From the UHGV virus genome UHGV-0023958: a DNA stretch of 64,000 bases; one strand, given 5' to 3'. The notes beneath the pieces are model-generated. The model saw nothing but the letters and a program-made list of their open reading frames with translations. It did no database searches and had not been told where the DNA came from. Below, in pieces: positions 1 through 64,000 of this stretch. How positions within the stretch are numbered: the first letter of the stretch is position 1; every line of letters starts with the position of its first letter. Made by a program: the position numbers and the translations under genes. Source of the stretch: a virus.

Positions 1-18
1 ATAAATCTTCCAGAAAAC

Positions 19-1044
19 GTGATAATTGTAGAAAATAAATATGGTCAAGGTTATGTAGTATCTGAAGGTAGTAGTCTTGATAATGCAAGAAATTGGGCTG
101 AAAGAAGTGATTGGGAACCTAAAGAATATAAATATAAAAATGGTACTTTTACTTTAAAGGTTACTAACGCTGCTGGTTATTCATCTCAAGGGGGCAAATT
201 ATCTTTCTGGAATTGTCAAATTAGAACAGAAGATGAAAAGGAATTTTTAATTGGAATTGCATCAGATTGTCTTGCTGAACTTATCATAAATAATACTTTG
301 ATAAATGGCAAATGTCAAAATAAGATATATTTTGCAAGATGTGGAAATTCTACTTGGGCTATAACAGAAAATATGCCATCATATAAAGCTGCTTTAGAAG
401 ATAAAAAGATTAAGGAAACTAAAACAACTATTAAATACGAACCAGGTGATCTTGTGGGAAGTTTAACATATACAGAATTATATCTTGGTGAAGTTTATGA
501 GTATATAAGTTTTTATCAACTTAACTCACGCGATAGATATTTCAAACACTTTGAGGTCAATGATAGAGCCTATGATAAACTTATAGTTATAAATGATAAA
601 CCTAGAAAATTTCACTGGCTTGTAAATGCTTATGATATTGATGAAGATTTCAATAATGAACCCACATTCTTCTGTACTTATTATCTATCTAAAAATAAGC
701 CAAAACGTAGAATTATAAAGAAGAGTTATGCTTTAAAAGATTATATAAATAACGCCTTAGAAGAATCTATAAAATATACTGCAAATAGATCAAGTGAATT
801 TAGTAGTGATGATCCTGTGCCTGAAATAGAAGTTTATTTAAGACAGTTTGTAAATGTCTATAGTCGTAAAGAAAATTTACCTCAGCCTAATAAAGAATTA
901 ATTCAAGAATTACTTACAAAATATCGCGCTATAGATCCATATAATTATACGATTAGGCATAATTGTAGTTATGTTATATATGAGCACGACTTAACTCCTG
1001 AATTATTAGAAGGTATCAAATCTGGCAAACTTGTTAAAGTTTAA
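19..1044 (+). CDS. hypothetical protein (5' boundary uncertain, window starts inside upstream context)
   Basis: 341-codon ORF from track; no recognisable motifs. Confidence 0.35.
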   Translation: MIIVENKYGQGYVVSEGSSLDNARNWAERSDWEPKEYKYKNGTFTLKVTNAAGYSSQGGKLSFWNCQIRTEDEKEFLIGIASDCLAELIINNTLINGKCQNKIYFARCGNSTWAITENMPSYKAALEDKKIKETKTTIKYEPGDLVGSLTYTELYLGEVYEYISFYQLNSRDRYFKHFEVNDRAYDKLIVINDKPRKFHWLVNAYDIDEDFNNEPTFFCTYYLSKNKPKRRIIKKSYALKDYINNALEESIKYTANRSSEFSSDDPVPEIEVYLRQFVNVYSRKENLPQPNKELIQELLTKYRAIDPYNYTIRHNCSYVIYEHDLTPELLEGIKSGKLVKV

Positions 1045-1075
1045 ATTGTAAAAATTATAATTGAATAATAAATTG

Positions 1076-1107
1076 AAAAAAGTCAACGAAATTAGTTGAC
1101 TTTTTTT
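1076..1107 (+). terminator. rho-independent terminator hairpin whose 3' half forms the -35 of the next promoter
   Basis: AAAAAGTCAAC-gaaatta-GTTGACTTTTTTT inverted repeat plus T-run. Confidence 0.55.
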
Positions 1108-1124
1108 CTGTTTTAGTATATAAT
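1096..1124 (+). promoter_or_regulatory. sigma70-type promoter
   Basis: TTGACT(1096-1101) -17bp- TATAAT(1119-1124); upstream gaaattag A-tract. Confidence 0.6.
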
Positions 1125-1160
1125 AGTATTGTAAATCAAAAAAAGAGAGGTATTTTATTT

Positions 1161-1688
1161 ATGAAAACACTTTTGATTGTAAATCTTATTGCCCTTGTAG
1201 TTCTTGTAGTATTTTTGACTTTGCTTTTAATTAATTATCTTAAAACTAATAAAGCACTATTTCACACTACAGCTGAGTTGGCTAGCGTTAAAGATGAAAA
1301 AGATAAGATTAAGTCAGAGCTTAATATTTATACTAAACCAAATCTAGCAGATATTTACCCCGAAGTTTATAACATAGTAGCTGCATGGTGCAAAGAAGTT
1401 GGGATTTATCAGGTAGCAATTAGGAATAGATATGACTCTAAATCAAATTGCTATAAATTCACCTTGTATACTGAAAGACCTGGAGCTTTTATCGGTAAAG
1501 CTGGAAGCACAATTGAGAAATATAAAAAGATGCTGTATGAATGTAGAGTCGGTTGCATGATTGGACAGATTGAGATAGAAGAAATCTCTGGCATAGTAAA
1601 TCAGAATCAAGTTGATGTAGAAGATTATTATAATTCTTATATGTCTAATTGGTTCGATTACGAGGAGGCGGGAGAGTATTATGAATGA
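1161..1688 (+). CDS. hypothetical membrane protein (N-terminal TM helix)
   Basis: ORF after promoter; SD AAAGAGAGG; hydrophobic N-terminus LLIVNLIALVVLVVFLTLLLI. Confidence 0.45.
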   Translation: MKTLLIVNLIALVVLVVFLTLLLINYLKTNKALFHTTAELASVKDEKDKIKSELNIYTKPNLADIYPEVYNIVAAWCKEVGIYQVAIRNRYDSKSNCYKFTLYTERPGAFIGKAGSTIEKYKKMLYECRVGCMIGQIEIEEISGIVNQNQVDVEDYYNSYMSNWFDYEEAGEYYE

Positions 1689-1909
1689 ATTAGAAGAAAT
1701 GCTTAAAAAATTATATGGTCTGCCGCCTTATGATAATTGGTCGAATATTTGTTACGGTGATGGATATTTTGCTAAATCCATTGAAGACAAATTTTCAGAG
1801 CAAGAAATTAAGCAGGCAAAAAAGAAATTAAAAATTTTTTGAAAATCTTGTAAAAACATTTGATATATATATGATATAATATACTTGTAAATAGAAAGAG
1901 GTGTTTAAA

Positions 1910-2143
1910 ATGAAAGTTGAGGAATTATTTAAAGTTATTGATACGAGGTTTTTCTACCCTGATATTCATATTGTTGACGATGCAAACTCAAGAAGCGTCC
2001 AAACATTTAAATATCTGCGGGATGGCGGAACTTACGTTAAAGAAATGCTTAATCAATTTGGAGACAGAACAATTGTACCACTTGGTGTTGATTTTGGTAC
2101 TGATGAATATGGAATTGACTACATTATAATCGAGGTAAAATAA
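1910..2143 (+). CDS. hypothetical protein
   Basis: SD GAAAGAGGTG then ATG 1910; preceded by extended -10 TGaTATAAT at 1872-1880. Confidence 0.4.
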   Translation: MKVEELFKVIDTRFFYPDIHIVDDANSRSVQTFKYLRDGGTYVKEMLNQFGDRTIVPLGVDFGTDEYGIDYIIIEVK

Positions 2144-2144
2144 T

Positions 2145-2444
2145 ATGTTTGTAATAAGTATAAAGAAAATATTTGACTGTTCAGGAAACAGATTAGAGAA
2201 ACCAGAATATGAATATTTTAGTTATGATAAATATGCGGGTTCTTTTAGTACTGGCTATCCTACTTGGGATGATTTTTATCATGCTGAAACTTTTAAAACT
2301 GCTGAACAAGCTAAAAAGGTTTATATGGAAAATTTACATATTCTTTATTGCAGTTGGAAAGACTATGACAGGGAAAGCGTAAGAATTTGTGAAATTAAAT
2401 TTAAGCCTATAGAAAAATTACCTTGGAAGGAAAGTGAAGACTAA
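2145..2444 (+). CDS. hypothetical protein
   Basis: ORF tightly packed with neighbours (ATGTTTG overlap). Confidence 0.4.
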   Translation: MFVISIKKIFDCSGNRLEKPEYEYFSYDKYAGSFSTGYPTWDDFYHAETFKTAEQAKKVYMENLHILYCSWKDYDRESVRICEIKFKPIEKLPWKESED

Positions 2445-2446
2445 TT

Positions 2447-2734
2447 ATGGAAATTAAAACTTATTATATAGAATTTAACTCTTGTAAAGATGGAGTAGTT
2501 TATTCTTTAGAGCAAACTGTAGAAGCAGCAGATATTTATAATGCTATGACAATAGTAGAGAATTACTGCCATGACAATTATGGAACTTGTGAAATTACTA
2601 GCGTTAAGAAAGTAAATAAAGATACTTTTACGTGTGAAGTTTGTAAAAGAAAATATCAATGGGCTTCTCCATGTACACCCGATGACTGCGAAGATAGATT
2701 TAAAGATTTTTGCAATAGAATAGAAGAAAATTGA
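2447..2734 (+). CDS. hypothetical Cys-rich protein
   Basis: ORF track; CxxC pairs. Confidence 0.4.
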   Translation: MEIKTYYIEFNSCKDGVVYSLEQTVEAADIYNAMTIVENYCHDNYGTCEITSVKKVNKDTFTCEVCKRKYQWASPCTPDDCEDRFKDFCNRIEEN

Positions 2735-2752
2735 ATTTGTGAGGATGAAAAA

Positions 2753-3040
2753 ATGATTGATATTAATACAGCTGTAAGGACTACTGAACGCAAACGAAAG
2801 AAATGTAAAAAAGATAATACAGAAAAAGATTATCAAAGATTTTTAAAATATTTAAATAAAAAAATTATTAAGGCGTGTAAAAAGGGAAGTTTTGATTATT
2901 GTTTTGATGTTGGTTGTGAAAGAAAGATTTTAGATAGATTAAAAACTGATTTAAACAATTTGGGTTACAAAGTAAATATTCGTGGACCTTTTTATAGTTT
3001 AGATACTTATTGGGAAATAAGAATTAGTTGGGAAAAGTAA
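2753..3040 (+). CDS. hypothetical protein
   Basis: ORF with SD GAGGATGAAAAA. Confidence 0.4.
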   Translation: MIDINTAVRTTERKRKKCKKDNTEKDYQRFLKYLNKKIIKACKKGSFDYCFDVGCERKILDRLKTDLNNLGYKVNIRGPFYSLDTYWEIRISWEK

Positions 3041-3069
3041 GGAAAGGATAAAAGAGGAAGAAATTTAAA

Positions 3070-3522
3070 ATGAAATTAAAAGGTAAACAAGCAGATGCGT
3101 TTGTGGATGCTTTGTCCAAAAGTGAAAAAATGAATGAAGAAAAAGAGAGTGGATTGTGTGCTTATAAATCGATGAATATAGAAGAGATTAAAAAAGAAAT
3201 TGATTACAAGCAAAAATACAATGATTTAATTGCACATATAAATACAGTACCGTTTATCACTAGCCCGATGGGAGACCTGCCAGTTACGTCAACAACTGTC
3301 AGAAATCTTTTAGACAAGTTGATAAAAACGGAAGAAGAAAACCATAGTTTAAGTAAACAGCTTTATGATTTAAATATTTATATCAATACCATCGAAGAAA
3401 TTCAAAATAATAACACAAAACATCTTGTAGATCTAATTAAAAAGGATATTCCCAAAGAATATCATAAACAGATTGATGAAACAACTAACATATTTCTTGG
3501 AGTGCAAAATGGAAAGATCTAA
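3070..3522 (+). CDS. hypothetical protein
   Basis: ORF with SD AAGAGGAAG. Confidence 0.4.
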   Translation: MKLKGKQADAFVDALSKSEKMNEEKESGLCAYKSMNIEEIKKEIDYKQKYNDLIAHINTVPFITSPMGDLPVTSTTVRNLLDKLIKTEEENHSLSKQLYDLNIYINTIEEIQNNNTKHLVDLIKKDIPKEYHKQIDETTNIFLGVQNGKI

Positions 3523-3921
3523 ATCTATTTCTGTGCGAATCATAAACAAAATCAAAAATTTAAAGATGAAGATTTTTGAATATGAAGACGAAGAACCAGA
3601 ATATGTAAACAGAAGGGCTGTTGCAATTTGCGATAGACACATTGAAAAATATCTTGCAAACGTTACACCTTATGAATCTGAAAGAAAAGAATTACGAGAA
3701 AATATTAAGTGGACTTGTGATAACTGCATGGAGAAATTAGAAAAACTTGGTTGGGAAGTTTATGGGCAATTATGAGTTTGAAGAATTTGTAAAAATTCTT
3801 AAGTGGGAAATACAAAAATATACCGTGAATCAAAAGATGAATGGAAAAGAGATAAATCCAGAAAACATTATTGATTTGATTGTCAAATGTGAAAATAAAG
3901 CAATAAAAAAATACTTTACAG

Positions 3922-4425
3922 GTGAAAATAATGAAAGGAATTGAAGTTTACAGAGGAAAAGTTGTTGACGAAGACGAATACGTGCAGGGTATATTAATCG
4001 GAGAAGATCAAATCTTTCAATATACAGAAGATGGTGAGTGGTCAGTAAATTGCGGCATCGGTTGTTTTTCTATCATACCAGAAACGATTGCGTATTGTGG
4101 AAAAATGGATATTGGAGATTTGACGGTTCTTCCGAGAACGGAAGAAGTGCAAGAATATCTGAAAAACCTTCCAAAATTTTATCTCGTTGCTTGTTGGGCG
4201 AGATATGGAGTTGTTGAATTTCCGTATAGCGGGAAAGATGTATTTGACGAAAAAGAGGGGTATGTTCCGTTGATATGGGAGTACGATGACCACAATGGGA
4301 CTTCCGACGAATATTATTTAAGAAAAATAACGGACACCACAACAGCTTCGATTTGGAATTGGTATAATAATAAATCAGTAGCAGAAGATGTAGCGAAAAA
4401 ACTTAACGAAAAATTCGATAAGTGA
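3922..4425 (+). CDS. hypothetical protein
   Basis: 167-codon ORF; antisense ORFs inside judged spurious. Confidence 0.45.
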   Translation: MKIMKGIEVYRGKVVDEDEYVQGILIGEDQIFQYTEDGEWSVNCGIGCFSIIPETIAYCGKMDIGDLTVLPRTEEVQEYLKNLPKFYLVACWARYGVVEFPYSGKDVFDEKEGYVPLIWEYDDHNGTSDEYYLRKITDTTTASIWNWYNNKSVAEDVAKKLNEKFDK

Positions 4426-4435
4426 AAATAATTTC

Positions 4436-4465
4436 AAAAAGTCAATCAAAATCGGTTGACTTTTT
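4436..4465 (+). terminator. terminator hairpin fused to the next promoter's -35
   Basis: AAAAAGTCAATC-aaaat-CGGTTGACTTTTT. Confidence 0.5.
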
Positions 4466-4484
4466 GTTTTGATTGTGCTATACT
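4456..4484 (+). promoter_or_regulatory. sigma70-type promoter
   Basis: TTGACT(4456-4461) -17- TATACT(4479-4484); SD AAAGGAGAG then ATG 4515. Confidence 0.6.
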
Positions 4485-4514
4485 AATTATAACGAATCTT
4501 AAAGGAGAGAGTTT

Positions 4515-4904
4515 ATGAAGAAAGAATATGGTTTCAGACACGCAGAATTCAATTGCGAGTATAGATATCCGATTATTTTTCATCCGATTCATAATTTCAA
4601 AGAATGGAAAGCTTATCGGTGGCGCAGAAAATATCTTTTAAAAAACGGTTTCGGACCAGAAGCATTTTGGGATACGGATCATTGGTTTGTTGATGTTATG
4701 CTTGAGATTTTAAAGAAACATTATGAATGGAGCAAAGAAAACCTGGATTCAAAAAATAATGAAGGTGTAGCAAATTTTCAAAAAGATCTTGCCCGTATGA
4801 TTGAAATTTTGGAATTTAAAAAAGATGAAAACGAAGCAGATGTGATTACTGACAGCGAATTTTTTAAATTACTTCAAAAGAGACTTCCTTTTTTATGGAA
4901 TTAG
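4515..4904 (+). CDS. hypothetical protein; the only gene I found that ends in TAG
   Basis: 129-codon ORF; stop TAG 4902-4904 abuts the left end of the IS element. Confidence 0.5.
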   Translation: MKKEYGFRHAEFNCEYRYPIIFHPIHNFKEWKAYRWRRKYLLKNGFGPEAFWDTDHWFVDVMLEILKKHYEWSKENLDSKNNEGVANFQKDLARMIEILEFKKDENEADVITDSEFFKLLQKRLPFLWN

Positions 4905-6235
4905 CGCAAGAAAATCCGTGACTTTAGTCGTGGGATGAATTGCGCGTAACAAGTTATGGAAGTAACTCGCGATAGAGAGTATGTTTACTCGATTCAATAT
5001 CACACAAAGAGGAGGTGAAGAATGTGGGAAAAGCTTATAAATATCGTATATATCCGAATGAAAAGCAGAAAGAGATAATAGCAAAGACATTTGGTTGTTG
5101 CCGTTTTGTATATAATAAGTATCTTGCGCAGAGAATTGAATTATATCAAACAAATAAATAGAGTTTGTCATACGTTAAGTGTGCAAAAGAAATATCTAAA
5201 TTAAAAGACGAACTTGAATGGCTTAAGGAAGTTGATTCCACGGCTCTTCAATCTTCCCTCAAAGATTTAGATAATACTTATCAGAAATTCTTTAAAGAAC
5301 ATACAGGATTTCCGAACTTCAAAAGTAAGAAAACGCACAGATATTCTTACAAATCTAGATATGTGAACGATAACATAAAATACCTCGGTAAATATATCAA
5401 ACTTCCAAAACTCGGATTGGTAAAAACGAAAAACAAGTTAATACCACAAGGAAGAATAGTAAATGTAACGATTTCTCAAGAACCAAGTGGTAAATATTAT
5501 GTTTCATTGTGTTGTGTAGATGTTGAAATAAAAGCATTACCAACAACTGGTAACACAATAGGCATAGATTTAGGAATTAAAGAATTTTGCATAACAAGTG
5601 ACGGAAAACTTGTGAACAATCCGAAATATCTTAAAAACTCGTTAAATAAACTTACAAAGTTGCAAAGAGAATTATCTCGAAAACCAAAAGATAGTTCTAA
5701 TCGTAACAAAGCAAGAATAAAAGTAGCAAGATTATACGAGAAAATTTCAAACCAGCGTAAAGACTTTTTACAAAAACTCTCAACCAATATCATTCGAGAA
5801 AACGATGTAATTTGCATTGAAGATTTGCAGGTGAAGAATATGGTTAAAAATCATAAGCTTGCACAGGCAATTAACGATGTTTCTTGGTCGGAATTTGTTC
5901 GAGAGTTAGAATATAAAGCACATTGGCATGGTAAGTTAGTTATTAAGGTTGATAGATTTTTTCCTAGTTCTCAAACTTGTAGTATTTGTGGATATAAGAA
6001 CGAGGAAACAAAAGATCTAAAAGTAAGAGAATGGGATTGTCCAGTTTGTCATACTCATCACGACAGAGATGTGAACGCTGCGATAAACATTCTTAATGAA
6101 GGACTAAAGCAATTAGCTTAAATATAAGAACCGCAGGAACTGTGGGGATAGCTTGGTAAATATTCTGACAGTAGTTGGAAGTTCCCAAGAATCTCACGGC
6201 TTTTAGCCGTGAGAGGTCCAAGGGATTAAAATAAT
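4905..6235 (+). mobile_element. IS200/IS605-family TnpB-only insertion element (no tnpA) with subterminal right-end hairpin
   Basis: TnpB ORF plus perfect 8-bp hairpin CTCACGGC-TTTTA-GCCGTGAG at 6193-6213 downstream of the stop, typical right-end/omegaRNA region; left boundary approximate. Confidence 0.55.
5024..6121 (+). CDS. tnpB: TnpB (IS605 OrfB, RuvC-like plus zinc finger) carrying one in-frame TAG at 5159-5161
   Basis: N-terminus [31 protein letters not shown] from GTG 5024, in frame through TAG into the 5165 ORF; RuvC motifs [27 protein letters not shown]; C-terminal CSICG..CPVCH zinc finger. Confidence 0.75.
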
Positions 6236-7051
6236 ATGACAGAACAAGAAATTTTTAATAGAGTAAAAGAGCACCACGAAGAAGCTAAATCATTAGGATA
6301 TAATGTCGTTGCAACTATTCTTCAAGGTTCACAGAATTACGGTCTTGAAATTGATTGCGAAGAATATCATTCTGATGTAGATACAAAATGTATCATAATT
6401 CCTAGTTTCGATGATTTTTGTTCTAATAAAGGTAGAATTTCTACTACGTATGTTCGGGCAAACAATGAACATATTGATTTAAAGGATGTTGGAACGTTAT
6501 TTGAATTGTTTAGGAAAGCAAATGTAAATATTCTTGAAATATTATTTTCAAAATATTATATTGTTGAATCAGATTACAAAGACTGGTTTGAAAAACTTCG
6601 TAGTTACGGAGAGCGTATTTGTAGTGCGAATAAGTGTCAAACATTCAGAACTATGTCTGGTTTGTCAATGGAAAAATACAAAGCACTTAAACATCCTTAT
6701 CCCTCAATTATTGATAAGATTGAAAAATATGGATATGACGGAAAACAACTTCATCATATTTTGCGTATAGCTAATTTCATCGGAAGATATTATCGTGGAG
6801 AAAGATTTAAAGATTGTCTGAAAGTCCATAAAAATTCTCGTGAGAATATGGATAAAGCAAAACTGAACTGGTTTTCTCTTGGTACGGCGGAATCTCTTGC
6901 AAAGATGTGGGACGATTTCACGAAAGAAATCAAAGATAAGTATTGCGAAGAACATAAAAACGATCCTATCGACGAAAAGATGTACGAAATTTTAAACAAA
7001 ATGAAAGTAGAAGCATACAAAGTGGCATTTAGAAAAGAATTGTCTCTGTAA
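6236..7051 (+). CDS. putative Pol-beta-superfamily nucleotidyltransferase
   Basis: GSQNYGLEIDCEEYHSDVDT resembles the GS..(D/E)xD nucleotidyltransferase signature; function not assignable. Confidence 0.35.
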   Translation: MTEQEIFNRVKEHHEEAKSLGYNVVATILQGSQNYGLEIDCEEYHSDVDTKCIIIPSFDDFCSNKGRISTTYVRANNEHIDLKDVGTLFELFRKANVNILEILFSKYYIVESDYKDWFEKLRSYGERICSANKCQTFRTMSGLSMEKYKALKHPYPSIIDKIEKYGYDGKQLHHILRIANFIGRYYRGERFKDCLKVHKNSRENMDKAKLNWFSLGTAESLAKMWDDFTKEIKDKYCEEHKNDPIDEKMYEILNKMKVEAYKVAFRKELSL

Positions 7052-28561: not shown

Positions 28562-29010
28562 GTAATCAGTTGAAGACAAACACCTCCCTAAACATCAACC
28601 GATACTGATTGCAACATTTGTACCTCAAATAATAAGATGTAGTACGGAGCTAACCACTCCGTATGATGAGATGAGAATGACTTGACCTCCGCGTGGTTCA
28701 TCTTGGGTAATTCTAACAAAGTCAAAAATCGCGACAAAAAAATACGGACAGCTAATAGTGCTTACTTTTGCTTATAGCAACAAACTGTTAATTTGTATTA
28801 GTGCTATAATTCAGTCCTTAAAAATGTCGCAGCTAGCGGAACTTACTTTTTATAAATAGACGATGAATATATTTGATAGCTCCGCGACATAATTATTTTT
28901 TTTGAATCGAGATTTTCAGCTAGTCGAGCTTACTTTAATATAAACTGTTCCTATAAACGGATAATATAGCGCGACAATTACGAAAATCTTGATTCTTTTT
29001 TTTATTTTCG
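28562..29010 (+). ncRNA. candidate promoter-driven non-coding RNA region with three direct repeat units
   Basis: ORF-free; repeats CAGCTA(A/G)NNGNGCTTACTTT at about 28752, 28830 and 28918, each preceded by a CGCGACA-like motif; hairpin TACGGAG..CTCCGTA; anti-SD-like CACCTCC. Confidence 0.3.
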
Positions 29011-33772: not shown

Positions 33773-35233
33773 TTAAAAATCTAAATCCTCAATCTCGTCT
33801 TTGTATAAAATTCCATCTTCAGTCTTCTCTAATAAATGTTTCAATTTCTTACCATTTGACATACCGCGTTCGAAAGCGTAACTACAAACCAGTTCGTTTA
33901 AACTCATGGTTGTATGTTGTAAGAATTCTTGAATTTTTACAAAAGACTCATCGGCATAAACCGTATCTGCTTTTGTAACATAAGCGTCATTTTTATAATC
34001 TTCTATCTCTTGAGCTTTTTCAAGCTTATTAAGATATTCTTTTGTTTGATCGTAAAAATAATCATTTATATTACGATTTTGAAGCATAAGACATTTTCGT
34101 TCTTGAGATTTACAATATTGGAAAAACTGTTCCTCTTCAACAGCTGATTTAACATCTTCTTTAATCGCTTTATTTAAAGAATCATTATGTTTTGATAAAG
34201 TTCTTTGTTTATGAGCTTCTTTGAATTTACCTTGAATAAATTTTCTTAAATCAGAATCGCTAATCATTCGTTTGGCTATGTCTTCACATTGTTGATCTTG
34301 TGAGACAATTACAATATAACTTGATAATCCGATTAATCCGAGATGTTTAAGAATTAATCTATCCAAATCATAATAGAATTGATCTCTGTTTTCTTGATTG
34401 AGTTCTGTTACATACTTAACGTTATATTTTTCCAGAAGTTTCTTTTGAATAAGAAGATATTTTCTCAGCTCTTCTTTTTCTTCAAGCATCACAAAGTTAT
34501 AATCTTTCTTAATCTTATTATCATAAACAGATCTGATTTTTCCGCTCTCCAAAGCTTCTAAAACCTTTTGTTGAGATTCTGGCGTAAGCTTATAAGCACC
34601 ATATCTTTCAGTTTTGAAAATAGCATGTTTATTTGTAAGCTTTGTGCAAGCAGATTGGAAAGCATGATCAAAAGACGAAGTTGTGTTTCGATAAAAGAAA
34701 TCAAGATTAATAACCGCGTTTTCACTATGTTCATCTTGGTATTCTTCGTAATTATTAAATCTTACGTCAATTGTAGAAAGTAATTGATTTCTGCTATCTT
34801 CGTCATAAGGTTTCCAATGGCTGTTCGCCATTCCGAGTAACTCATACCAATAACGTTTTGTTAAGGCAACTGGATTACATTCGGCTTGTGAAAGTATAAC
34901 GCTTAAAGTTAAAGCAACATAATCGGATAAAGGAATTTTTTTGTTGATTTGTTTTGTAATCGGAATTTCATTTGTTTTGATTTTGGTGAACTCTACAGAA
35001 TTACCACTTTTGATACAGTCGGTGTTTTTTAATATTAAGTCTTTGGTTTGCATCATCGCACCTCCTGTACAATATTTCAGTCCTAAATCTTCAAAAACTT
35101 CTTTCCAATTCTTGTAACGATAATTGATTTTGAGATTTGATAAATCAATCTTTCTCAATACTTGAGGATCGCTGATTTTTTGTTGAATAATGTAGTTGTC
35201 AATACGTTTTTGAATATCAGTCTACTACGTCAT
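33773..35233 (-). CDS. hypothetical protein whose codons 3 and 4 are both TAG
   Basis: minus-strand promoter TTGACA -17- TATAAT (35284-35312), SD AAAGGAG, ATG at 35233-35231, then ACG TAG TAG ACT in frame with the 461-codon ORF listed in the track. Confidence 0.55.
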
Positions 35234-35283: not shown

Positions 35284-35312
35284 ATTATAACACAAAATCA
35301 GAAAAATGTCAA
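35284..35312 (-). promoter_or_regulatory. sigma70-type promoter (minus strand)
   Basis: on the minus strand, TTGACA -17- TATAAT. Confidence 0.6.
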
Positions 35313-53518: not shown

Positions 53519-56329
53519 TTATTCATAAACAATTTCTCCGTCTTCGTTTATTAAGAAACTTTGCGCCTCTTTTGAAATAAGCATAAGTTTATACTTTCTT
53601 CCAAGGAATTCTTCGCCGTCTTCACATTCAATTGGCACGTATGTTTGTTTTTGTTCGATACAGTCGAGTATGTCATCACCAAGTATCTGCCAGGCAAAAT
53701 CCCAATTGAATTTCGTATATGATTGCGATAAAGCTTTAATATATGTCAACGTTTCCATCGTGGTAAGTTCGAGCGTCATCAAATCATTTTGAATTTCTTC
53801 TTTGATGATGTCGAGATAACCAAATCTTATGTCTTTAAAATCTTCATCGTCAACATCGAAATAAATGCTGTTAATAAGAGTGATTGCTTTTTTATTGCAG
53901 TATTTACGATACATATCGCGGAACTTTTGAAGAATATCTGGAATTATGATATAAGAATTTAAATCGTAATATGGAAGCATGCTTGTGCAGTTTTTATTAT
54001 ATTTAATATCAAAATCGATAGATTCGATATCACGACATAATAAATTCATCGTACAGTTTGTATTGATAAGTGGAAGAAACTTATGATATTTTTTTACAAA
54101 ATCATTCTCTTCTTTTGTTTTATTCTCTTTTATAAGAAGTTTTTTAAGTTTCTTTCCGAACATACATTTTGATGTTTCGTTATACGTATTTTCGTATTTC
54201 TTATATTTTTCGTTTAATTCTGGATATAAGTATCTAAAGAAATAAGGTTTTTTGGAAATAACGAGTGAATTATGATAATATTTTTCTTTTCTTTGCTCTT
54301 CTGTATCATCTTTGTCGATTTTCCAGATTTTAAGCCATTCGTCCTTCGGAGGACCTTTGGCTTCAACGCCTTTAATTCTGTCAATTTCCTGACCGTTGAT
54401 TTCTCGAAGAAGTTTTATGCGAAGCAGAAGCTCTTCCCGTTGCTTTTTTTGCTCTGGACGCTGGAACATCGGTAACATTGCTTCAATAATCGTTGAATAA
54501 TTACTGTAAGTTCCAACTTTTGTACCGAACCCACGAATATCTGTTTCTATGAAGTTTCTATGACAAATTTTGTGAGAAGGTGCCGGTTGTTTTTTATATG
54601 TGATAGGATTTGTATAATCTTTCATCGAACCTTTTAAAAATATCGGATTATTTGTGCTCATACAAATATCACCGTCAAAATCACTGTCTGAGTGTCGGAG
54701 TGTACTTAAATCATATATTGAATAAACAATCCCGCTTTCAATCCATTTGTACCATTTTGTTGTTTCTTCATTATCAAACAATTTGCAATGATTTATCTCG
54801 TGTTTATCAAGAAGTGGAGAGCGACAGAGAACTATTTCATCGCCAATATTTGCGCGATTTTTCCAGAAATTCGAATAAAAATGCTCACCGGGTAACACTC
54901 CGACGGGTGGCAATCCTAACGCGCTTTGACACTGTGCTATCGGATCGGAAATCATAAACGAATAATTTCCTTTAACCCATATTTTTCCAATTTTCGATTT
55001 ATTGATTGATTCAACTATGTTTTTGTAAATTTTTCTTTGGACATAAGAATCTTTTAAAAATTCTGGATTTTTTACAACCGCTTTCATAGCAAGGTTTTGC
55101 GCTCTTGTGTATACGTCAGAATATTCAATTTCCATATCTTGATTGAACCCACCGAGCGAATATAACATAGCATATAAATCATCTCCGCTACAAACTTTCT
55201 GAAGCCAATCGATGGTAGGTTGAATTAATTCTTTAACATCTTGTTCTTTTATATTTAAAACTTGAATATATTGATAATTTGCAAGAACCCATTCGTCATC
55301 ATATTTTTTGTTGTATCTAGATACACCCCATCCGATGTTATATTTAGTGGCATATGAATCAAAATCTTCCCAACTTGAATAAGCTTTGTATTCTTTAAAT
55401 TGACTTTCTGAAATCAAACAGTCTATATCTTCTATTTTATGTGGTATTCCCCATCTATCATAAATAACAGATATATTATACTCAGCTGCATACGCTTTAA
55501 AATCGAACGGAACGAGATTTCCTTTGATAAACACGGAGCGAACAACGTACGAACTGGCAACATAATCAAGCCCCATTTCCTCAGACCATTTCATTGCCAT
55601 TTCTGGAGAAACAAGCCCCTGTCCGTCACAGCTATTCATTGTTACGTCTTGGACTCTTTCCTCTACTGCCTTTTTCCCATCTTCTGTGTTTATAATCCAA
55701 TCGATTTTTTGATCTTTCAGTGTTGTTTCAAAATCTTTGATTATACAAACACGTGGTTTCGAAACCCACATTATCGAAGATGTTGAAAGAGAGAAATACG
55801 CAGACAGTTTGGCAATATTTGTTTCTTCGAGACGATTATTCAAATCGCACATCAAACGCGTAAATAATTCTTCGTAAATGCGCTCCGAACAGAATTGTAC
55901 CGTATTGTGTCTGATTTGTCCTGCACTGGCACTAAAACGAACATATCTTACACCGTTTAAATAAAACCCTGCTTTTGCAAGCCTTCTATATTCCGATTTT
56001 TTATTTACGGTAACAAGAACAAAATCTTTAACAAATAACTTATTTAAAATTGCATACCAGAATATTCTCGCATCTTTTGCTCTACCTTCTTTCTTTGCAC
56101 GTCTCATCGATCCACGAAGAAATTCTATTTCTTTAAATATCTCATGATGATTTCGATTATCGCCATTGATAAAACGAGCTTGTTGAAAAGCGATGTTATC
56201 TCCGAGTGAAACAAGATTTCCGTCCAAAGCAGCCTGTCTAGCATCGTATGATGGTATATCGAGGTTGTTTTCACAAATAAACTTTGAAGACAACTTTATA
56301 ATTTGATATAAAACTTGTTCGCGAGCCAT
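53519..56329 (-). CDS. putative YonO-like / two-barrel single-subunit RNA polymerase
   Basis: 936-aa protein with HSDSDFDGD (plus coords 54668-54682), matching the DxDGD metal-binding motif (NADFDGD in beta-prime; DxDGD in YonO/QDE-1-type RNAPs); translationally coupled TAATG with the upstream kinase. Confidence 0.5.
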   Translation of the reverse strand: MAREQVLYQIIKLSSKFICENNLDIPSYDARQAALDGNLVSLGDNIAFQQARFINGDNRNHHEIFKEIEFLRGSMRRAKKEGRAKDARIFWYAILNKLFVKDFVLVTVNKKSEYRRLAKAGFYLNGVRYVRFSASAGQIRHNTVQFCSERIYEELFTRLMCDLNNRLEETNIAKLSAYFSLSTSSIMWVSKPRVCIIKDFETTLKDQKIDWIINTEDGKKAVEERVQDVTMNSCDGQGLVSPEMAMKWSEEMGLDYVASSYVVRSVFIKGNLVPFDFKAYAAEYNISVIYDRWGIPHKIEDIDCLISESQFKEYKAYSSWEDFDSYATKYNIGWGVSRYNKKYDDEWVLANYQYIQVLNIKEQDVKELIQPTIDWLQKVCSGDDLYAMLYSLGGFNQDMEIEYSDVYTRAQNLAMKAVVKNPEFLKDSYVQRKIYKNIVESINKSKIGKIWVKGNYSFMISDPIAQCQSALGLPPVGVLPGEHFYSNFWKNRANIGDEIVLCRSPLLDKHEINHCKLFDNEETTKWYKWIESGIVYSIYDLSTLRHSDSDFDGDICMSTNNPIFLKGSMKDYTNPITYKKQPAPSHKICHRNFIETDIRGFGTKVGTYSNYSTIIEAMLPMFQRPEQKKQREELLLRIKLLREINGQEIDRIKGVEAKGPPKDEWLKIWKIDKDDTEEQRKEKYYHNSLVISKKPYFFRYLYPELNEKYKKYENTYNETSKCMFGKKLKKLLIKENKTKEENDFVKKYHKFLPLINTNCTMNLLCRDIESIDFDIKYNKNCTSMLPYYDLNSYIIIPDILQKFRDMYRKYCNKKAITLINSIYFDVDDEDFKDIRFGYLDIIKEEIQNDLMTLELTTMETLTYIKALSQSYTKFNWDFAWQILGDDILDCIEQKQTYVPIECEDGEEFLGRKYKLMLISKEAQSFLINEDGEIVYE

Positions 56330-57570: not shown

Positions 57571-58251
57571 CTATTTTCGACGTATATTGTAAAATATTTT
57601 CACAATTTTTATTTTTATTTATTGACACATGTATATACGCGTGCGTACGCGCGTTTTTATTATATTATTATATTTATTATATATTATTATAAATATCTTA
57701 TATATTATAATATTTTTTAATTTATTTTAGATTCCCCACCCAAAGAAAAACCCACCCAATAATTCCTTCGAAAAATTTTCGAAGTTCATATTTCCAAATC
57801 CAAAAACAAAAATAGAATTGAAATCAAAATTAGAAATATGAAAATAAGATAATCATTCATTACATTCTGCCCATAATATAGATTATATTTTAAATTATTA
57901 TAATCACGATTATCTTTATTCACAGACACATTACTTAAAGTTTAAGTAATTCCTCCTCCCGTCTTTTTTATTTGAGGTATAGTTTGGGAACCACGGTCCT
58001 CTAACGGCAATTATTCATTAGCCGAGCGAATATCTCTTGTCAGGCTCGCAACACCAATTAGTTTTGTATTCGGGACCTATATAAGCAAACCGATACTTGT
58101 GAAAGGGAAGATAAACATTTTTGCTACCCTTGATCAACGTGGACCTATTTAGTTTGTGATTATTATAACATATATCTAAAAATAAGTCAAGCGATTTTGT
58201 ACTAGTTTCAGGAAATTTTTTAAATATTTTTTTAAAATCATTTGAATTAAC

Positions 58252-58280
58252 TTGACAAATATTTAATAATATGTTATAAT
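58252..58280 (+). promoter_or_regulatory. sigma70-type promoter heading the right arm
   Basis: TTGACA(58252-58257) -17- TATAAT(58275-58280); SD AAAGGAGG then ATG 58308. Confidence 0.6.
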
Positions 58281-58307
58281 ATATTATGAATAAAGGAGGT
58301 TTTCTTT

Positions 58308-58868
58308 ATGAAAGATAAAAAAATGGAAAAAGAAATTTTAGATGTATATGATATATTCGAAAAACATAAAGATGAAAATTTTGAAGAAATCTTTACAAAT
58401 TATAAAGAAGAATTTGAAAAATCTTTACCTTCGTTGCCAGATGGAGATTATAAAGTAAAGATTTTAAATAAACTTTACGATAATTATGTAAATGTTGAAA
58501 ATCAAGAACATAAATTGATAAAGTTTTATAAAGAGGAAGATGATTTCATAAAAACAATTGAAAATAAAGATATGAAAGCACTCTTTTATTCATTCTATGC
58601 GCTCCATAAATTAAATATGCACGAGAGCGGTTGGGATAGTTATGATATAGACAAATTGCGCGAATTATCGGGCATTGAGAAGCTCAAATGCGAAGATTTG
58701 CCGCCAGTTTTGAAATATGGAATTCAACTTCGTGTGAGCGGAAGCAAAAAACCGACGCAAACCTTTCATATTGATAACGGAGTTGAAGGAAAGGAAATTT
58801 CGTGGAGTTGCTTCGACGATACTTTTAAAGAACGAATGAGGAGGCTGGTTTATGGAGATTGTAAATAA
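58308..58868 (+). CDS. hypothetical protein
   Basis: ORF track. Confidence 0.45.
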   Translation: MKDKKMEKEILDVYDIFEKHKDENFEEIFTNYKEEFEKSLPSLPDGDYKVKILNKLYDNYVNVENQEHKLIKFYKEEDDFIKTIENKDMKALFYSFYALHKLNMHESGWDSYDIDKLRELSGIEKLKCEDLPPVLKYGIQLRVSGSKKPTQTFHIDNGVEGKEISWSCFDDTFKERMRRLVYGDCK

Positions 58869-59625
58869 ATTAGAAGCAATTAAATATATGCTGAATAATA
58901 AATCTTACATTCCCGAATTGAGTACAAATAAATAGGATGCCTGGCTCTTATATTATTTAAGAAAGAAGAAGGGAAAAGATAAAGACGAAGCATATAAGAT
59001 TTGGCTTCCGATTTATGAAACAGTACACGAAAAATCTTCCAAGGGCGAATACCTTGGTGTCTTTTGGAATAAGTGGAAAACTTCCGCTTCAACCGTCCGT
59101 TTAAACAAACAAAATATTGCAACGATTTATCAAGAAGAGATTGATAGAATAAATAAATGCGACGTTAAAGCAACTTGGCAGAAGCAGTTATTGTTATTGA
59201 TTTTGGTTTATGCGAAAATGACAAACAATTTCAGATTAAGCGAAATTAATCTCGGCCTTTTCGCGAAATATATCGGAAAGAAAACGAAAGATATTACCGA
59301 AAATCTTTCTTACTCAATGACGCAAGAAGCGATTAAAAACGAGATATTCGAAATGGTTGAAATAAAGGAGTGGGATGATATTGAAGGTTGCTGGGAAACG
59401 AGTAGATATTTCAATATTCACGAATTTAAGAATGGCGAAGTCATTTGTAATATATGGAACGGCTATCAAGTAAAAGAATTAGATCATTTGTTTCCTATTA
59501 TTAAAACTTGCGAGAATTGCGGAAGCGAGTTTCGACCGAGTTCTCGTGGAAAAACTTGTTTATGTGAAAGATGTTATAAGAGAAAAAGATATGATTTCCA
59601 AAACTCTTTTCATATTGTTAAGTAA
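58852..59625 (+). CDS. hypothetical protein with C-terminal zinc ribbon; one in-frame TAG at 58933-58935
   Basis: SD GAGGAGG then ATG 58852; reading frame open from 58852 to 59625 except the single TAG (codon 28); C-terminal CENCG..CLCERC. Confidence 0.5.
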
Positions 59626-59760
59626 TTAAAATTACAACAGGAAATCCCCTCTCCTTTATGAGTAAAGAAATAGAAAACACAAAATGTGAATAAAACGTTT
59701 CTTTCAAAATAACAGAACTCCGCACGCGTATAAGATAAGCGGACCACGCGGAGTCGATTT

Positions 59761-59836
59761 GCTTTCATGGCTCAATTGGTAGAGCATTTGATTTGTAATC
59801 AAAGGATTCTCGGTTCAAGTCCGAGTGGAAGCTCCA
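59761..59836 (+). tRNA. tRNA-Thr (anticodon UGU), CCA encoded
   Basis: cloverleaf: acceptor GCTTTCA/TGGAAGC, D-stem GCTC/GAGC, anticodon stem TTTGA/TCAAA with loop TTTGTAA, T-arm CTCGG-TTCAAGT-CCGAG, discriminator T then CCA. Confidence 0.7.
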
Positions 59837-59890
59837 TTTATAAATGGTTTCCGCCGTCTGGTGGATTGAGATTAAAAGGAGATAGAAGTA

Positions 59891-61108
59891 ATGATTGAAG
59901 AAAAATTTCAAATGTTAGACGGCGAGAATACCGATGAATACACAATTCGTATTTGTTCAATGCGTGAAGACGAGAATTTAACTTGGCAGGAAGTTGCTGA
60001 TATAATCAACGAAGAAACAGATAGAAGTTATTCTGAGAAAAAGTATCGCACTGATTATAAGCGTTTTTGCGAAGGCATGAATAAAGGTTATGAAATTGCG
60101 AAAGAGGAAAGTGATAATTCTTCTTTGTCGCAAGAAGAAATCACTGTTAAGCTTCGAGAATTCGAAAAAGCAAAAATCAAAATGCGCGACGAGCGTATTG
60201 ATTATATGCGGATTATTCGAGAGGAAGCGCGTAAAGAATCTTTTGTTGATTTGGTTCGTCGTGTAATTCAAGAAGAAGTTAAGCCATACGATAACGGTGT
60301 TTATATTCTTCCAGAAGAAACGTACGATGACGATATGATTGTTTGTTTGAGTGATTTACACACTGGAATGGTGTGTGATAATTACTGGAACAAATTTAAT
60401 ACCGATATTTTAAAGCAAAGACTCGATAGATATTTGGTTGAAATATTAAAAATTCAAAAATTGCACAAGTGCAAAAATTGTTATATTGCACTTGGTGGCG
60501 ATAATATTAGTGGTTTAATTCATGTTAATATGCGCTTGCAAAATAATGAAGATGTTATTAGACAAGTGAAAATTGCTTCTTTACTTATTGGCGATTTTAT
60601 TAAAGCACTCGATGATTCTAATTTGTTTGAAAGAATTCAGGTAAATAGTGTTGCAGGAAATCACTCAAGAATTTCTCCGAACAAACAAGATCATTTAAAA
60701 GGCGAAGAACTCGACGATTTAATTCCTTTTTATTTGAATGTTATGTTTATGAACAGACCAAATGTAAAAGTGTATGAAGATTGTTCGATTGATTCTACTA
60801 TAGATAGTATTGTAACACGCGCGGGAAGATTGTTCTATATAACCCACGGAGATAAAGACTCGGAAAAGGGTGTTGCCTCACGACTTACAATGATGTTGGG
60901 AAGAAAACCTGACGGTGTAATTATGGGACATAGACATCATAACGCGTATAATACTATCGATAATGTAAAAATTATACAAAACGGCAGTTTTGAAGGCGTT
61001 GATGACCATTGTATCAATATGCGTATTTCTGGTTCTCCAGAACAAGTCGTATTCCTTACAAACGCAGACAGAGTTGTTAAATGTTTGTATGATATAAATT
61101 TGGGCTAA
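59891..61108 (+). CDS. calcineurin-like metallophosphoesterase (Mre11/SbcD-like nuclease or phosphatase)
   Basis: ordered motifs LSDLHTG, ALGGDNISG, AGNHSRIS, MGHRHH. Confidence 0.4.
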   Translation: MIEEKFQMLDGENTDEYTIRICSMREDENLTWQEVADIINEETDRSYSEKKYRTDYKRFCEGMNKGYEIAKEESDNSSLSQEEITVKLREFEKAKIKMRDERIDYMRIIREEARKESFVDLVRRVIQEEVKPYDNGVYILPEETYDDDMIVCLSDLHTGMVCDNYWNKFNTDILKQRLDRYLVEILKIQKLHKCKNCYIALGGDNISGLIHVNMRLQNNEDVIRQVKIASLLIGDFIKALDDSNLFERIQVNSVAGNHSRISPNKQDHLKGEELDDLIPFYLNVMFMNRPNVKVYEDCSIDSTIDSIVTRAGRLFYITHGDKDSEKGVASRLTMMLGRKPDGVIMGHRHHNAYNTIDNVKIIQNGSFEGVDDHCINMRISGSPEQVVFLTNADRVVKCLYDINLG

Positions 61109-61172
61109 TAACCTCAAATAACCCCTCTTTATGAGGGGTTATAATTTTAATATATTAAAAGGTGGATAGAAG

Positions 61173-62453
61173 ATGATTTTTAAAAAAACACCAGTAGATA
61201 AAAAGTATGATGCTGCTGGCGATGATGAAGATGGTTTATCTTCTGAAAAATACCCTCCTCTTGGGAATTTTAACACCGTAAGACAACAAGGCGGTTGTTT
61301 TGGGTGTGGGGCAATACGAAAAATCTCATCTTATCCCATCGTTCATCCAAAAAGCGGCTGGGGTTTGATGGATAAAAACGGCAAAAAACACTTTGTGTTT
61401 TGTGAAAATTGTTTTGCAAAGTTAATAGATCAATATACCGAAGAGGCGCATGGAAATAAATATAAAGCTTTATATCGTATGTGTATGTATACAGGTTATT
61501 ATTACGATGATAAGCTTGCACACAGGGTTATAGAAGAAGAACATAAATATGACGATAACACTCCAGTTCCAAAATCCTATCACTGGGGCTTGCTTTATAA
61601 TAAAGCAGTTCGCGAAGATTTGATACTTTCTGATAAGACATTTTACGATTCCGATAATATTATGTTTGAGGAAGTTGTAAAATATCATAATCAACACAGC
61701 GTTGAAGATTTAATGTCTGACGAAGATAAAAACAATAGAATTACAATTTTGTCAGTCTTTCACTGTGATCCGTTTGAAGACGAAGAATTATTGGATAGAG
61801 TTAAATTACAAAACGACCTTGTAACAATGATTGACGATTCAATGGCGGACGATATGGTTCGTCAAAAGGCGGCAATCGAAATCGTTCGTTCGTTTCATCG
61901 TATCGATAAAATTAGTAAAGCTTTACAAGAATTACAAACAGATAAAGATACAATGCTCGAACATACAAAAGAGATTAAAGAGTTGTCTGAAACTAAACAA
62001 AAAGAAACAAGCTTGGTAACTCAATTCTCAAAAGACCACGGGTTTGCCGAAAAATACGCCACTGCAAAATCAAGAGGTTCTGGTTCACTTGGTTATATTA
62101 TAAAAGAAATGAACGAGAAAGGATATGATAGGGGTGCTGTCAATAAATTTGATATAGACACGGCAGCGGCAATGAAACAGGTTGCGGATATAAGTTCTTC
62201 ATCAATGGCGAAACAAGTTGCGCTTAGTGATTCTGATAAAGCTGCTATGATAAAAGATCAATCGATAATGATTAATCGAATGAGAGAAACGATGGAAAAA
62301 CAAGCTGAAGAATTAAGACTACTTCGTGAAAAACATTTGAAATCTGAATTATTAGACGAGTATAAAAAAGATTTGAAAGATAAAGGTTTAAATGAAGAAC
62401 AAATAGATAGAGCTGTTAAAGAAGAATTAGATAGAAGGATACCAGTTGTATAA
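61173..62453 (+). CDS. hypothetical zinc-ribbon/coiled-coil protein; possible terminase small subunit by position
   Basis: immediately upstream of and coupled (TAATG) to terL; N-terminal CFGCG..CENCF, long charged C-terminal helix. Confidence 0.3.
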   Translation: MIFKKTPVDKKYDAAGDDEDGLSSEKYPPLGNFNTVRQQGGCFGCGAIRKISSYPIVHPKSGWGLMDKNGKKHFVFCENCFAKLIDQYTEEAHGNKYKALYRMCMYTGYYYDDKLAHRVIEEEHKYDDNTPVPKSYHWGLLYNKAVREDLILSDKTFYDSDNIMFEEVVKYHNQHSVEDLMSDEDKNNRITILSVFHCDPFEDEELLDRVKLQNDLVTMIDDSMADDMVRQKAAIEIVRSFHRIDKISKALQELQTDKDTMLEHTKEIKELSETKQKETSLVTQFSKDHGFAEKYATAKSRGSGSLGYIIKEMNEKGYDRGAVNKFDIDTAAAMKQVADISSSSMAKQVALSDSDKAAMIKDQSIMINRMRETMEKQAEELRLLREKHLKSELLDEYKKDLKDKGLNEEQIDRAVKEELDRRIPVV

Positions 62454-64000
62454 TGATAAGTGTATATAAGAATTCTACCGAAATAGAAGTAACTACTCGT
62501 CGTGCTGAAATTTTTGAAAAATATAATAAAGTAATTCAATACGGAAGAAGAAACCCAGTGTGGTTTATAGAAGAGATTTTTAAAGTTCCACTTTTGGATT
62601 ATCAAAAATATATTATAATGAACTCCTGGACTAAATAGCGTGCGATATGGGTATGTTCTCGTAACGCGGGTAAGTCCATGATGGGTGCATTATATACTAT
62701 GACAAAAGCATTATTGTTTCCGTCTTTTGAATGTTGGTTTATGTCTTTGAGTGCAAATCAGGCACAGACAACATTTAAAAAATTGGAAGATATTGCTAAA
62801 AAGAATATACCCTCACTTATTGGTTCAAGTGATGTTTTTATGAATGAAACCGTAAAATTACAAGCAAATTCTGACGGTTTCACACATCAAAAATCAAACC
62901 ATGAAGTAAAACTTTATAACGGTTCTCATATTACAACGTTGGCTGGTAAACCAGAAACAACCGTTGGTATGCGAAGCCATTTGAGCGTATATGATGAAGC
63001 TGGTAAAATTTCTGCTGAATATTATGGTTTAACAGAACCATTTGCAACGCAAGATACCAACTTCAAAACTGGTGAAAAAATTGATTTGAACGTTATTCCA
63101 AAAATGATTCCAACACAACTTCTTTATATGTCTTCTGCGGAAGATACCTCTTCATATTTATGGGATATTTATAAAGAAGGCGCGAAGAGAATGATGATGG
63201 GTGATAACACTTGGTTTGTCGCAGATATAAATTGTGAAATTCCGTTACACCCTACAAAAGGCGGTAAGCCGTATGCTCCACTGTTAAATCAACAGGTTGT
63301 TGATGACGCTATGCGTGTAAACGAATATAAAGCATTGAGAGAATATTATAATATATTTGATACTACTGGTGGTAACGATGCTGTTATCAATAGAACTATT
63401 ATTATGAGAAACGAAGAAGAGTATCTTCCTGTTTTTGCTAACGATAACACGGTTACGCCAGGAGACAGAATATATGCTTTGTGTTTCGATCCTGCTTTGA
63501 TGTCGGATAACTCAATTATCTTGATTGGAGAACTGACGAAAAAAGACGGAGTTGGTTGGACTGGAAGAATAGTAAATTGCATCAACCTTATTGAATCTTT
63601 AAATAACGGAGAGAAGAAAATTTTGACAGCAGTTGAACAAGTCGAGCGTTTAAAGAAATTGATTATTGATTATAATGGAAACGCACCAGAGTATAAGAAT
63701 TTAACAATATTTATAGATCCTGGTTCTGGTGGTGGCGGACATATATATTCAGATATTCTTATGCAGAATTTTGTTGATGAATATGGAATTAGACACTTTG
63801 GTTTAATCGACCTGGAAGATGAGAAATCTGCTTTGGAACAAAACAAATTCCCACTCGCTGTAAGAGATGTTTTACATTTGTATACTGCAACAAAATATAA
63901 AAATGAGTTTTACAGTGCGGTAACAACAATGTGCGAACAGGATTTGGTTAAATTTCCTTACACAGATTCGTTCGGTTCTAAAAACTTTACTATAAACGGA
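62453..64000 (+). CDS. terL: terminase large subunit (partial, runs off window) with one in-frame TAG at 62636-62638
   Basis: 61-codon N-terminal ORF ends at TAG; same frame continues RAIWVCSRNAGKSMMGALY (Walker A) .. HLSVYDEAGKI (Walker B) to the window end. Confidence 0.7.

Follow-up and report, generated by a model that had tools for sequence, protein, structure and literature searches.

A large tailed-phage lineage in which the stop codon TAG very probably encodes glutamine

Genes in the 64,000-nt stretch of UHGV virus genome UHGV-0023958 studied here (the window, taken at its full length; 33% GC) hardly ever end in TAG, and some of them hold TAG within their reading frames, which raises the question of what this codon means to the virus. 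A sequence-only reading of the window had counted five in-frame TAGs, and on checking we found all five in place (5159 in a TnpB gene, a double TAG at 35222-35227, 58933, and 62636). We consider it very likely that the window is part of a tailed phage genome of ~135-148 kb that uses TAG for glutamine instead of as a stop (translation table 15).

To assign a meaning to TAG we turned to relatives. Through the terminase we found 12 IMG/VR contigs of 94-148 kb that are 88-98% identical to the window, none of them identical to it. In alignments of these relatives, with one overlapping set excluded, we tallied TAG sites lying within long frames free of TAA and TGA. There were 328 such sites, and 206 have TAG in every aligned genome. 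The other 122 (37%) are variable: 79 swap TAG with CAA or CAG alone, 10 admit a further codon besides these, and 33 have other codons alone. Among the alternative codons, CAA (67) and CAG (60) were followed by GAG and AAA with 8 each. CAA is two substitutions from TAG and yet is frequent, which fits synonymous exchange in the glutamine family and not random nonsense mutation. Judged by these codon exchanges, the tally shows that TAG and the glutamine codons are equivalent in this lineage, that is, TAG-to-Gln recoding (code 15). With about a dozen genomes at 88-98% identity, exchanges of CAA or CAG for TAG can be traced site by site.

An exchange of a different kind was seen at L013:8725, where TAG is codon 353 of 356 (phrog_4088) and alternates with TCG or TCA (Ser), not with Gln codons. 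This may be a TAG that arose near the C-terminus with little consequence.

We walked the relatives downstream of the terminase and joined the window with contig 170376 into a composite genome. Behind the terminase come the portal, structural and neck proteins and then the tail module; in-frame TAGs occur in the portal, the tape-measure and other structural genes as well. The tape-measure gene (PF10145, 122 bits) has 3042 codons with 36 TAGs and no other stop, and in three other genomes it has 30-31 TAGs. A 1232-aa open reading frame (ORF) adjacent to it in the tail region holds 12. One could put the in-frame TAGs down to nonsense mutation, pseudogenes or errors of assembly, and the rarity of TAG stops to AT-richness. 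There are just five in-frame TAGs in the 64 kb of the window, and the TnpB copy could be a decaying insertion sequence (IS), with GAA or AAA at that codon in its paralogues. Nevertheless we hold this explanation to be very improbable: 10-12 genomes, assembled independently and differing at nearby synonymous sites, have the same TAGs, TAG swaps with CAA and CAG far above any other codon, the 3042-codon tape-measure frame is open but for its TAGs, and a dedicated CUA tRNA is conserved.

This tRNA, 75 nt long with the anticodon CTA (CUA), was found in 11 of the 11 relatives sampled, at one conserved locus (ARAGORN; Rfam tRNA 52.8-54.4 bits). The sequence-only reading had proposed that any suppressor lies outside the window. 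This agrees with its place ~27 kb leftward in all 11 relatives; on a relative contig of 147,968 bp it is at 2260-2334, ~27.5 kb left of the window-equivalent start. The window's own genome is known for 64 kb alone, and we infer that it carries the suppressor too and that the CUA tRNA is charged with Gln. In the relatives there was no CUA tRNA near the terminase, along the head and tail modules, or in a tRNA cluster of variable content to the left of the window. The tRNA has canonical D and T loops (a 7-nt D loop with GG; T loop TTCGAGC), an unpaired U1/C72, and G73. The mismatch of U1 with C72 together with G73 presumably recalls bacterial tRNA-Gln. About 70 nt upstream is a sigma-70 promoter that matches the consensus at 12 of 12 positions and has a TG extension. 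Between promoter and tRNA lies an 18-bp perfect palindrome, GTCAAATCT(A/G)(A/G)ATTTGAC (L183:8340-8360, and in all of L180-L190), possibly serving as an operator or as a signal for processing.

Upstream of the CUA tRNA locus are genes for an anaerobic ribonucleotide reductase, a tail protein and a DNA methyltransferase. Downstream are those for a Sak4-like protein, a DnaB-like helicase, a putative primase (read by eye from sequence alone), and a DNA polymerase whose gene is interrupted by a group I intron. Introns of this group (Rfam RF00028, 61-78 bits) were seen at L183:17306-17614, also in L180 and L182, and at L021:9497-9789; one of them divides the DNA polymerase gene into parts of 562 and 548 aa.

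Given a cognate tRNA, two other ways of reading TAG can be weighed. TAG might still be a stop, with leaky regulatory read-through at low efficiency by a host or phage tRNA-Gln(UUG/CUG) acting as a near-cognate. Gln insertion at UAG by near-cognate pairing is known in other systems; the relatives have 1-3 tRNA-Gln(UUG) genes, some with non-canonical T loops, and the window TAGs are sparse and near gene starts. At 90% read-through per site, however, less than 3% of the product would be full-length, and with at least 30 TAGs in one essential gene decoding must be near-complete. In addition, the cognate CUA tRNA is in all relatives sampled, and genes practically never end in TAG. Finding the CUA tRNA led us to drop decoding by tRNA-Gln(UUG) as a near-cognate, and leaky read-through as a whole seems to us very improbable, if slightly less so than nonsense mutation. 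Alternatively, TAG could encode pyrrolysine or another residue. ARAGORN labels the suppressor 'tRNA-Pyl(cta)', and similarity to a tRNA panel does not settle its isotype. That label mirrors the anticodon alone, however, and the CUA tRNA has a normal D loop and the T loop TTCGAGC. Both loops set it apart from the architecture of tRNA-Pyl. By far most of the codons that replace TAG are CAA and CAG, and no pyl genes were noticed, with no systematic search made for them. A residue other than glutamine is thus hardly to be expected.

Recoding to glutamine also accounts for a window in which few genes end in TAG. A greedy map of non-overlapping ORFs of at least 45 aa gave 125 ORFs that cover 88% of the window; 1 of these runs off the window end, and the 124 closed ones end in TAA (88), TGA (33) or TAG (3). 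The TAG at 62636-62638 is the in-frame TAG of the terminase and thus no gene end, and the one that closes a 49-aa intergenic ORF on the minus strand (28588-28737) probably does not belong to a gene. This leaves 4902-4904 (ORF 4515-4904) as the only TAG that plausibly looks like a genuine gene end. Both earlier statements, that TAG almost never serves as a stop next to TAA and TGA and that 4902-4904 is the single case, are borne out by these counts. TAG makes up 13.1% of all stop trinucleotides on both strands of the window (933 of 7130). At p = 0.131 the binomial probability of 3 or fewer TAG ends in 124 is 3e-5; it rises to 1e-3 if p is set to 0.10, and to 0.02 under a conservative p = 0.07. 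The depletion of TAG terminators is real, and its significance hangs on the null picked for a genome of 33% GC. The value of 0.02 at a 7% null is a point for AT-richness, as is the general preference of low-GC phages for TAA (Borges et al., bioRxiv 10.1101/2021.08.26.457843). Comparing the read-through models by coding density told us nothing for the window, because it holds only five TAGs.

The window has three parts: small rightward operons over 1-33 kb, a leftward block at 33.8-57.5 kb, and a rightward operon that runs into the terminase. The features that matter for its in-frame TAGs outside TnpB are as follows.

1089-32663, plus strand: left arm, small rightward operons with genes for thymidylate synthase, nicotinamide adenine dinucleotide (NAD) synthetase, an NAMPT-like (nicotinamide phosphoribosyltransferase-like) protein, a FolD-like protein and others

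33773-35233, minus strand: double-amber gene (two TAGs in a row), 486 aa, starting ATG ACG TAG TAG, with the TAGs at 35222-35227 as codons 3 and 4

35284-35312, minus strand: sigma-70 consensus promoter TTGACA-17 nt-TATAAT ahead of the double-amber gene, also kept in L192

58252-58280, plus strand: sigma-70 consensus promoter TTGACA-17 nt-TATAAT at the head of the rightward operon into the terminase

58852-59625, plus strand: 257-aa gene with a C-terminal Cys-rich motif and TAG at 58933-58935, codon 28

59761-59836, plus strand: tRNA-Thr(UGU), not a suppressor (ARAGORN; Rfam tRNA 70.1 bits)

62453-64000, plus strand: large terminase, the first 516 of 630 aa before it leaves the window, with TAG at 62636-62638, codon 62, just before Walker A

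The double-amber gene has a Shine-Dalgarno sequence, AAAGGAG, 8 nt upstream of its ATG at 35233. In L192, a relative on an independent European Nucleotide Archive (ENA) metagenome contig, the same promoter and ribosome-binding site precede ATG ACG TAG CAG. In the 257-aa gene the ATG overlaps the end of the preceding gene, and the TAG is followed by 86 open codons without ATG, GTG or TTG. At codon 28 all 12 genomes compared have TAG, and in the stretch of 27 codons ahead of it most variation is synonymous and falls on third positions, as in a translated region. By this comparison of genomes the TAG is under selection. Searches of Pfam and PHROG gave no match for the double-amber gene and none for the 257-aa gene. 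The terminase was identified by tblastn to annotated phage terminases, its match to Pfam TerL_ATPase being weak; at codon 62 the window and 10 relatives share TAG, whereas the two most distant, L008 and L009, have CAA or CAG. A 12-mer, ACAAATAAATAG (Thr-Asn-Lys-amber), is identical in TnpB (5150-5161) and the 257-aa gene (58924-58935), and the terminase TAG is likewise preceded by AAA. As a general context AAA-TAG was rejected, Lys standing before just 2 of the 36 tape-measure TAGs. A further 12-mer, TATCCGCCGCCC, occurs four times (33635, 35437, 36657 and 37414) in intergenic DNA around the strand switch, flanking the double-amber gene.

Scanning the window for ORFs with TAG read through yielded no further robust in-frame TAG. 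The additional left-arm TAGs flagged by the scan lie upstream of a standard start, in the overlap with a preceding gene or in short antisense ORFs, and by their positions they are artefacts of the caller (N-terminal over-extension and antisense ORFs). One candidate, TAG 3738, adjoins a segment (3776-3920) that makes up most of the downstream ORF and that a relative lacks. The earlier statement that the early operons of the left arm are free of in-frame TAG holds, with no robust case outside the IS element. The accompanying claim that TAGs are confined to late, packaging or mobile genes stands in part: it is right for the terminase and TnpB, and goes too far for the genes at 33773-35233 and 58852-59625. 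The label "late" is unjustified for these two because they have no recognisable function and both lie behind consensus sigma-70 promoters.

Across modules of the composite genome TAG is unevenly spread. In the module for packaging, head and tail we counted 75 TAGs over 16,406 codons (4.6 per 1000), placed in 15 of its 43 genes. Bins of 5 kb over the tail genes reach 6.6-14.9 TAGs per 1000 codons, and the left arm has essentially none. Over the first 57.7 kb of the window (~17,000 codons) the robust TAGs are those of TnpB, the IS junction and the double amber alone, tallied as 4 in-frame TAGs (TnpB and the gene at 35233) besides the 4902 terminator; left-arm operons for nucleotide and NAD metabolism have no TAG. 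Recoded codons are enriched in packaging, head and tail genes relative to the left arm, and the fit to the reported pattern of recoded phages, proposed from the sequence, was confirmed in this respect. Calling genes under the standard code would truncate or split at least four genes of the window, the terminase included, and would shatter the tail module, so that table 15 is needed for annotation.

This skew bears on whether the host itself reads TAG as sense, in which case the phage would mirror its host and no code would switch on infection. The early genes shun TAG in either role, at gene ends and within frames, and by itself this would fit any host code. The nearest match in the genome collection is a terminase with 40% identity on a contig of a Tissierellia metagenome-assembled genome. 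Against a recoded host stand the skew by module (6.6-14.9 TAGs per 1000 codons in the tail bins and next to none in the left arm), the phage's own suppressor, and the Tissierellia contig itself: on this distant relative the locus is almost without in-frame TAG (1 TAG in 5955 codons of long frames). We know of no bacterium in which TAG encodes Gln. In phages matched to a recoded host ~90% of genes have in-frame recoded stops (Borges et al., bioRxiv 10.1101/2021.08.26.457843). There is accordingly very little chance that the host shares this code. Two or more independent observations contradict each of the four rival explanations.

If glutamine recoding is confined to the phage, the order in which its genes become readable is of interest. 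A highly conserved promoter of sigma-70 type, AAATTAGTTGAC-N18-TATAAT with an extended upstream element, heads operons of the left arm in six copies (1089, 15225, 17335, 19523, 24206 and 32628). Relatives have the motif in their replication module too, and in no head or tail locus. "Late" is assigned here from gene function and promoter motifs. With genes so assigned, a regulation in which early genes are readable and late genes recoded would fit the distribution of TAG and of the promoter motifs, and we infer that the arrangement acts as a translational timer. The left-arm genes, being TAG-free and ending in TAA or TGA, would be read in the same way under the standard code of the host. The phage tRNA(CUA), at the head of the DNA-replication module as in the relatives, would be transcribed from its perfect sigma-70 promoter, and once it is made ribosomes would read through TAG. 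Before that point no full-length terminase, head or tail proteins would be expected, above all no tape-measure protein (30-36 TAGs). Within the window the two genes of no recognisable function (35233 and 58852) and TnpB would be held back likewise.

It is also conceivable, though we think it rather unlikely, that single or double ambers directly behind start codons are translational locks that go beyond the bulk recoding of tail genes. Putative lock sites are codons 3 and 4 of the gene at 35233, codon 28 of the gene at 58852, codon 62 of the terminase, and codons 3 and 13 of the gene right after the suppressor tRNA in relatives, which starts ATG TCG TAG and has its second TAG at codon 13. If such locks exist, strong host-type promoters would give rise to proteins, the TnpB nuclease among them, only after the suppressor tRNA has accumulated. 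The turnover of TAG, CAA and CAG among strains ~95% identical (37% of sites polymorphic) would then be an ongoing tuning of locks. The double amber after a start codon and the arrangement of promoter, palindrome and tRNA offer an experimental handle on recoding as a timer.

Several points weigh against the recoding and its proposed timing. There is no CUA tRNA within the 64-kb window. Compared with 130 phage tRNAs, the CUA tRNA of the relatives is closest to Gly and Ala tRNAs at ~0.68-0.70 identity, so that similarity to this panel is uninformative. No RF2 or aminoacyl-tRNA synthetase turned up, release factors and a Gln-tRNA synthetase not having been searched for systematically. Of the 122 variable TAG sites, 33 are without a Gln alternative, and the TnpB site has GAA or AAA in paralogues. 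As to timing, a few replication-module genes in relatives hold TAG, among them the one right after the suppressor tRNA, and the gene at 35233 holds its TAGs behind an early-type promoter. The suppressor may moreover be expressed early and not late, because it has a host-type consensus promoter and lies among replication genes.

The lone TAG end at 4902 and the TnpB gene belong to one locus.

4515-4904, plus strand: ORF of 129 aa whose TAG end, 4902-4904, is at the exact left junction of the TnpB element

4905-6222, plus strand: IS200/IS605-type element with TnpB as its sole gene (GTG 5024 to TAA 6121)

With TAG read as Gln, the ORF at 4515-4904 would be 14 codons longer and end at TAA 4947-4949. 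An empty-site allele in relative L153 (~18050) reads ...TGG GAT TAA, with TAA at the codon matching TAG 4902, and the sequence after it resumes in the window past the right end of the element, at 6223. It follows that TAG 4902 came with the insertion and that the ancestral stop was TAA; TAG 4902 was probably created by the IS and is not a retained TAG terminator. The IS200/IS605 assignment is based on the helix-turn-helix (HTH), RuvC-like OrfB and zinc-ribbon TNB domains (Pfam OrfB_IS605 2e-31, Cas12f1-like_TNB 4e-26, HTH_OrfB_IS605 2e-21) together with presence/absence polymorphism. The TAG of TnpB (5159-5161) is codon 46, directly after the N-terminal HTH domain. TnpB paralogues at other sites (L015:17622-18829 and L186:13922-15237) have GAA or AAA at this codon, which says nothing on the meaning of TAG. 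To judge from its different sites in different strains and its absence at the L153 site, this TnpB-only element is recently mobile in the phage population. Its right end and flank, GATTAAAATAATATG, resemble an omega-RNA scaffold plus guide.

Elsewhere in the window, the leftward block codes for a deoxynucleoside monophosphate (dNMP) kinase and a large polymerase-like protein, and the right operon for an SbcD-type exonuclease as well as the large terminase.

53519-56329, minus strand: 936-aa protein with no TAG inside (Pfam RdRP PF05183 2e-10; phrog_8308 2e-95)

We take this match to the RdRP/YonO family to be a YonO-like single-subunit RNA polymerase; it is possibly a candidate for the late-gene transcriptase. 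Gene signals such as sigma-70 promoters and AGGAGG ribosome-binding sites suggest a host of Gram-positive type.

Recoding of TAG to Gln in phages is already known. Gut phages using code 15 include crAss-like phages, Lak phages and the Garnet, Amethyst, Sapphire, Agate and Topaz clades (Borges et al., bioRxiv 10.1101/2021.08.26.457843); they have also been described by Yutin et al. (PMC7886860), with proteomic validation (PMC9523058). Going by described features, the present lineage resembles them in several ways: in-frame TAG stands for Gln in homologues, a low-GC genome has lost TAG as a terminator, a tRNA(CUA) is phage-encoded, close relatives differ in their recoded sites, and recoded codons lie mainly in structural genes with replication genes variably affected. 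It differs in that only 15 of the 43 packaging, head and tail genes, and a handful elsewhere among ~213 predicted genes, have TAG, whereas the lowest clade mean for genes with a recoded stop is 26% (Borges et al., bioRxiv 10.1101/2021.08.26.457843). Furthermore, the suppressor here heads the replication module under a sigma-70 promoter and is not beside a lysis cassette, and no RF2 or aminoacyl-tRNA synthetase was seen, again with no systematic search.

The Phassvirus group (phAss-1 OQ749652, BK046881 and BK025033; Babkin et al. 2023, PMC10607447) is alike in size (~135 kb), siphovirus-type layout, a tape-measure protein of ~3100-3200 aa, TAG in terminase, portal, tape-measure and tail-fibre genes, and a tRNA-Sup-CTA with no dedicated synthetase. 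Membership in this group was rejected: even with OQ749652 part of the phage collection searched, which has ~50,700 deposited records, there was no nucleotide similarity and no tblastn match of terminase or portal. In that collection 25 kb of the window had no megablast match and the suppressor tRNA had no match; tblastn matches of the terminase, to Bacillus, Clostridioides and Thomasclavelia phages, did not exceed 26.5% identity, and the portal gave one match at 24% identity. SPbeta-like large phages with a YonO-type polymerase share the size class, low GC, Gram-positive-type signals and a protein of ~900 aa in the RdRP/YonO family, but beyond distant terminase matches no sequence match to SPbeta-type phages was found in the phage collection. 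SPbeta uses the standard code. Going by these searches, the lineage is absent from the deposited phage genomes. It adds to the recoded phages a lineage of large phages with Gram-positive-type gene signals and a YonO-like polymerase, and leaves the established picture of phage stop-codon recoding unchanged. Its most notable features are the ambers right after start codons, the strain-level polymorphism of TAG, CAA and CAG, and a TnpB with an in-frame TAG.

In tRNA content the lineage also departs from phAss-1, which has 36 tRNAs with three suppressors; here there are about 5-7 and one suppressor. The window itself has tRNA-Thr(UGU) as its sole tRNA, as had been claimed, by both ARAGORN and Rfam. 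The other tRNAs of the relatives are grouped.

L144-L159, ~1-2.5 kb upstream of a 234-aa protein (e.g. L146:7312-9031): variable tRNA cluster

In strains ~95% identical this cluster holds Asn, Trp, Ala, 1-3 copies of Gln(UUG) and sometimes Tyr, Val or Leu tRNAs; it has no CUA anticodon and was rejected as a source of suppression. Two types of tRNA-Gln(UUG) have non-canonical T loops, AGCAUAA and AUCAUAC, and one of them was missed by ARAGORN. In a third tRNA-like gene, present in 3 genomes, the anticodon loop measures 6 nt (CTTGTG or CTTATG) in two of them, and in the remaining one it is a normal UUG loop. The tRNA-Thr(UGU) gene of L004, L005 and L007 (L007:7180-7384) has a 129-nt insert between anticodon positions 35 and 36. 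The insert was set aside as a suppressor for want of a recognisable anticodon arm, the 18 nt of which are replaced by 66 nt. By Rfam it is itself a tRNA (33.8 bits), with an acceptor stem, a D arm, a perfect T arm and a CCA end, and thus a tRNA-like element nested inside a tRNA.

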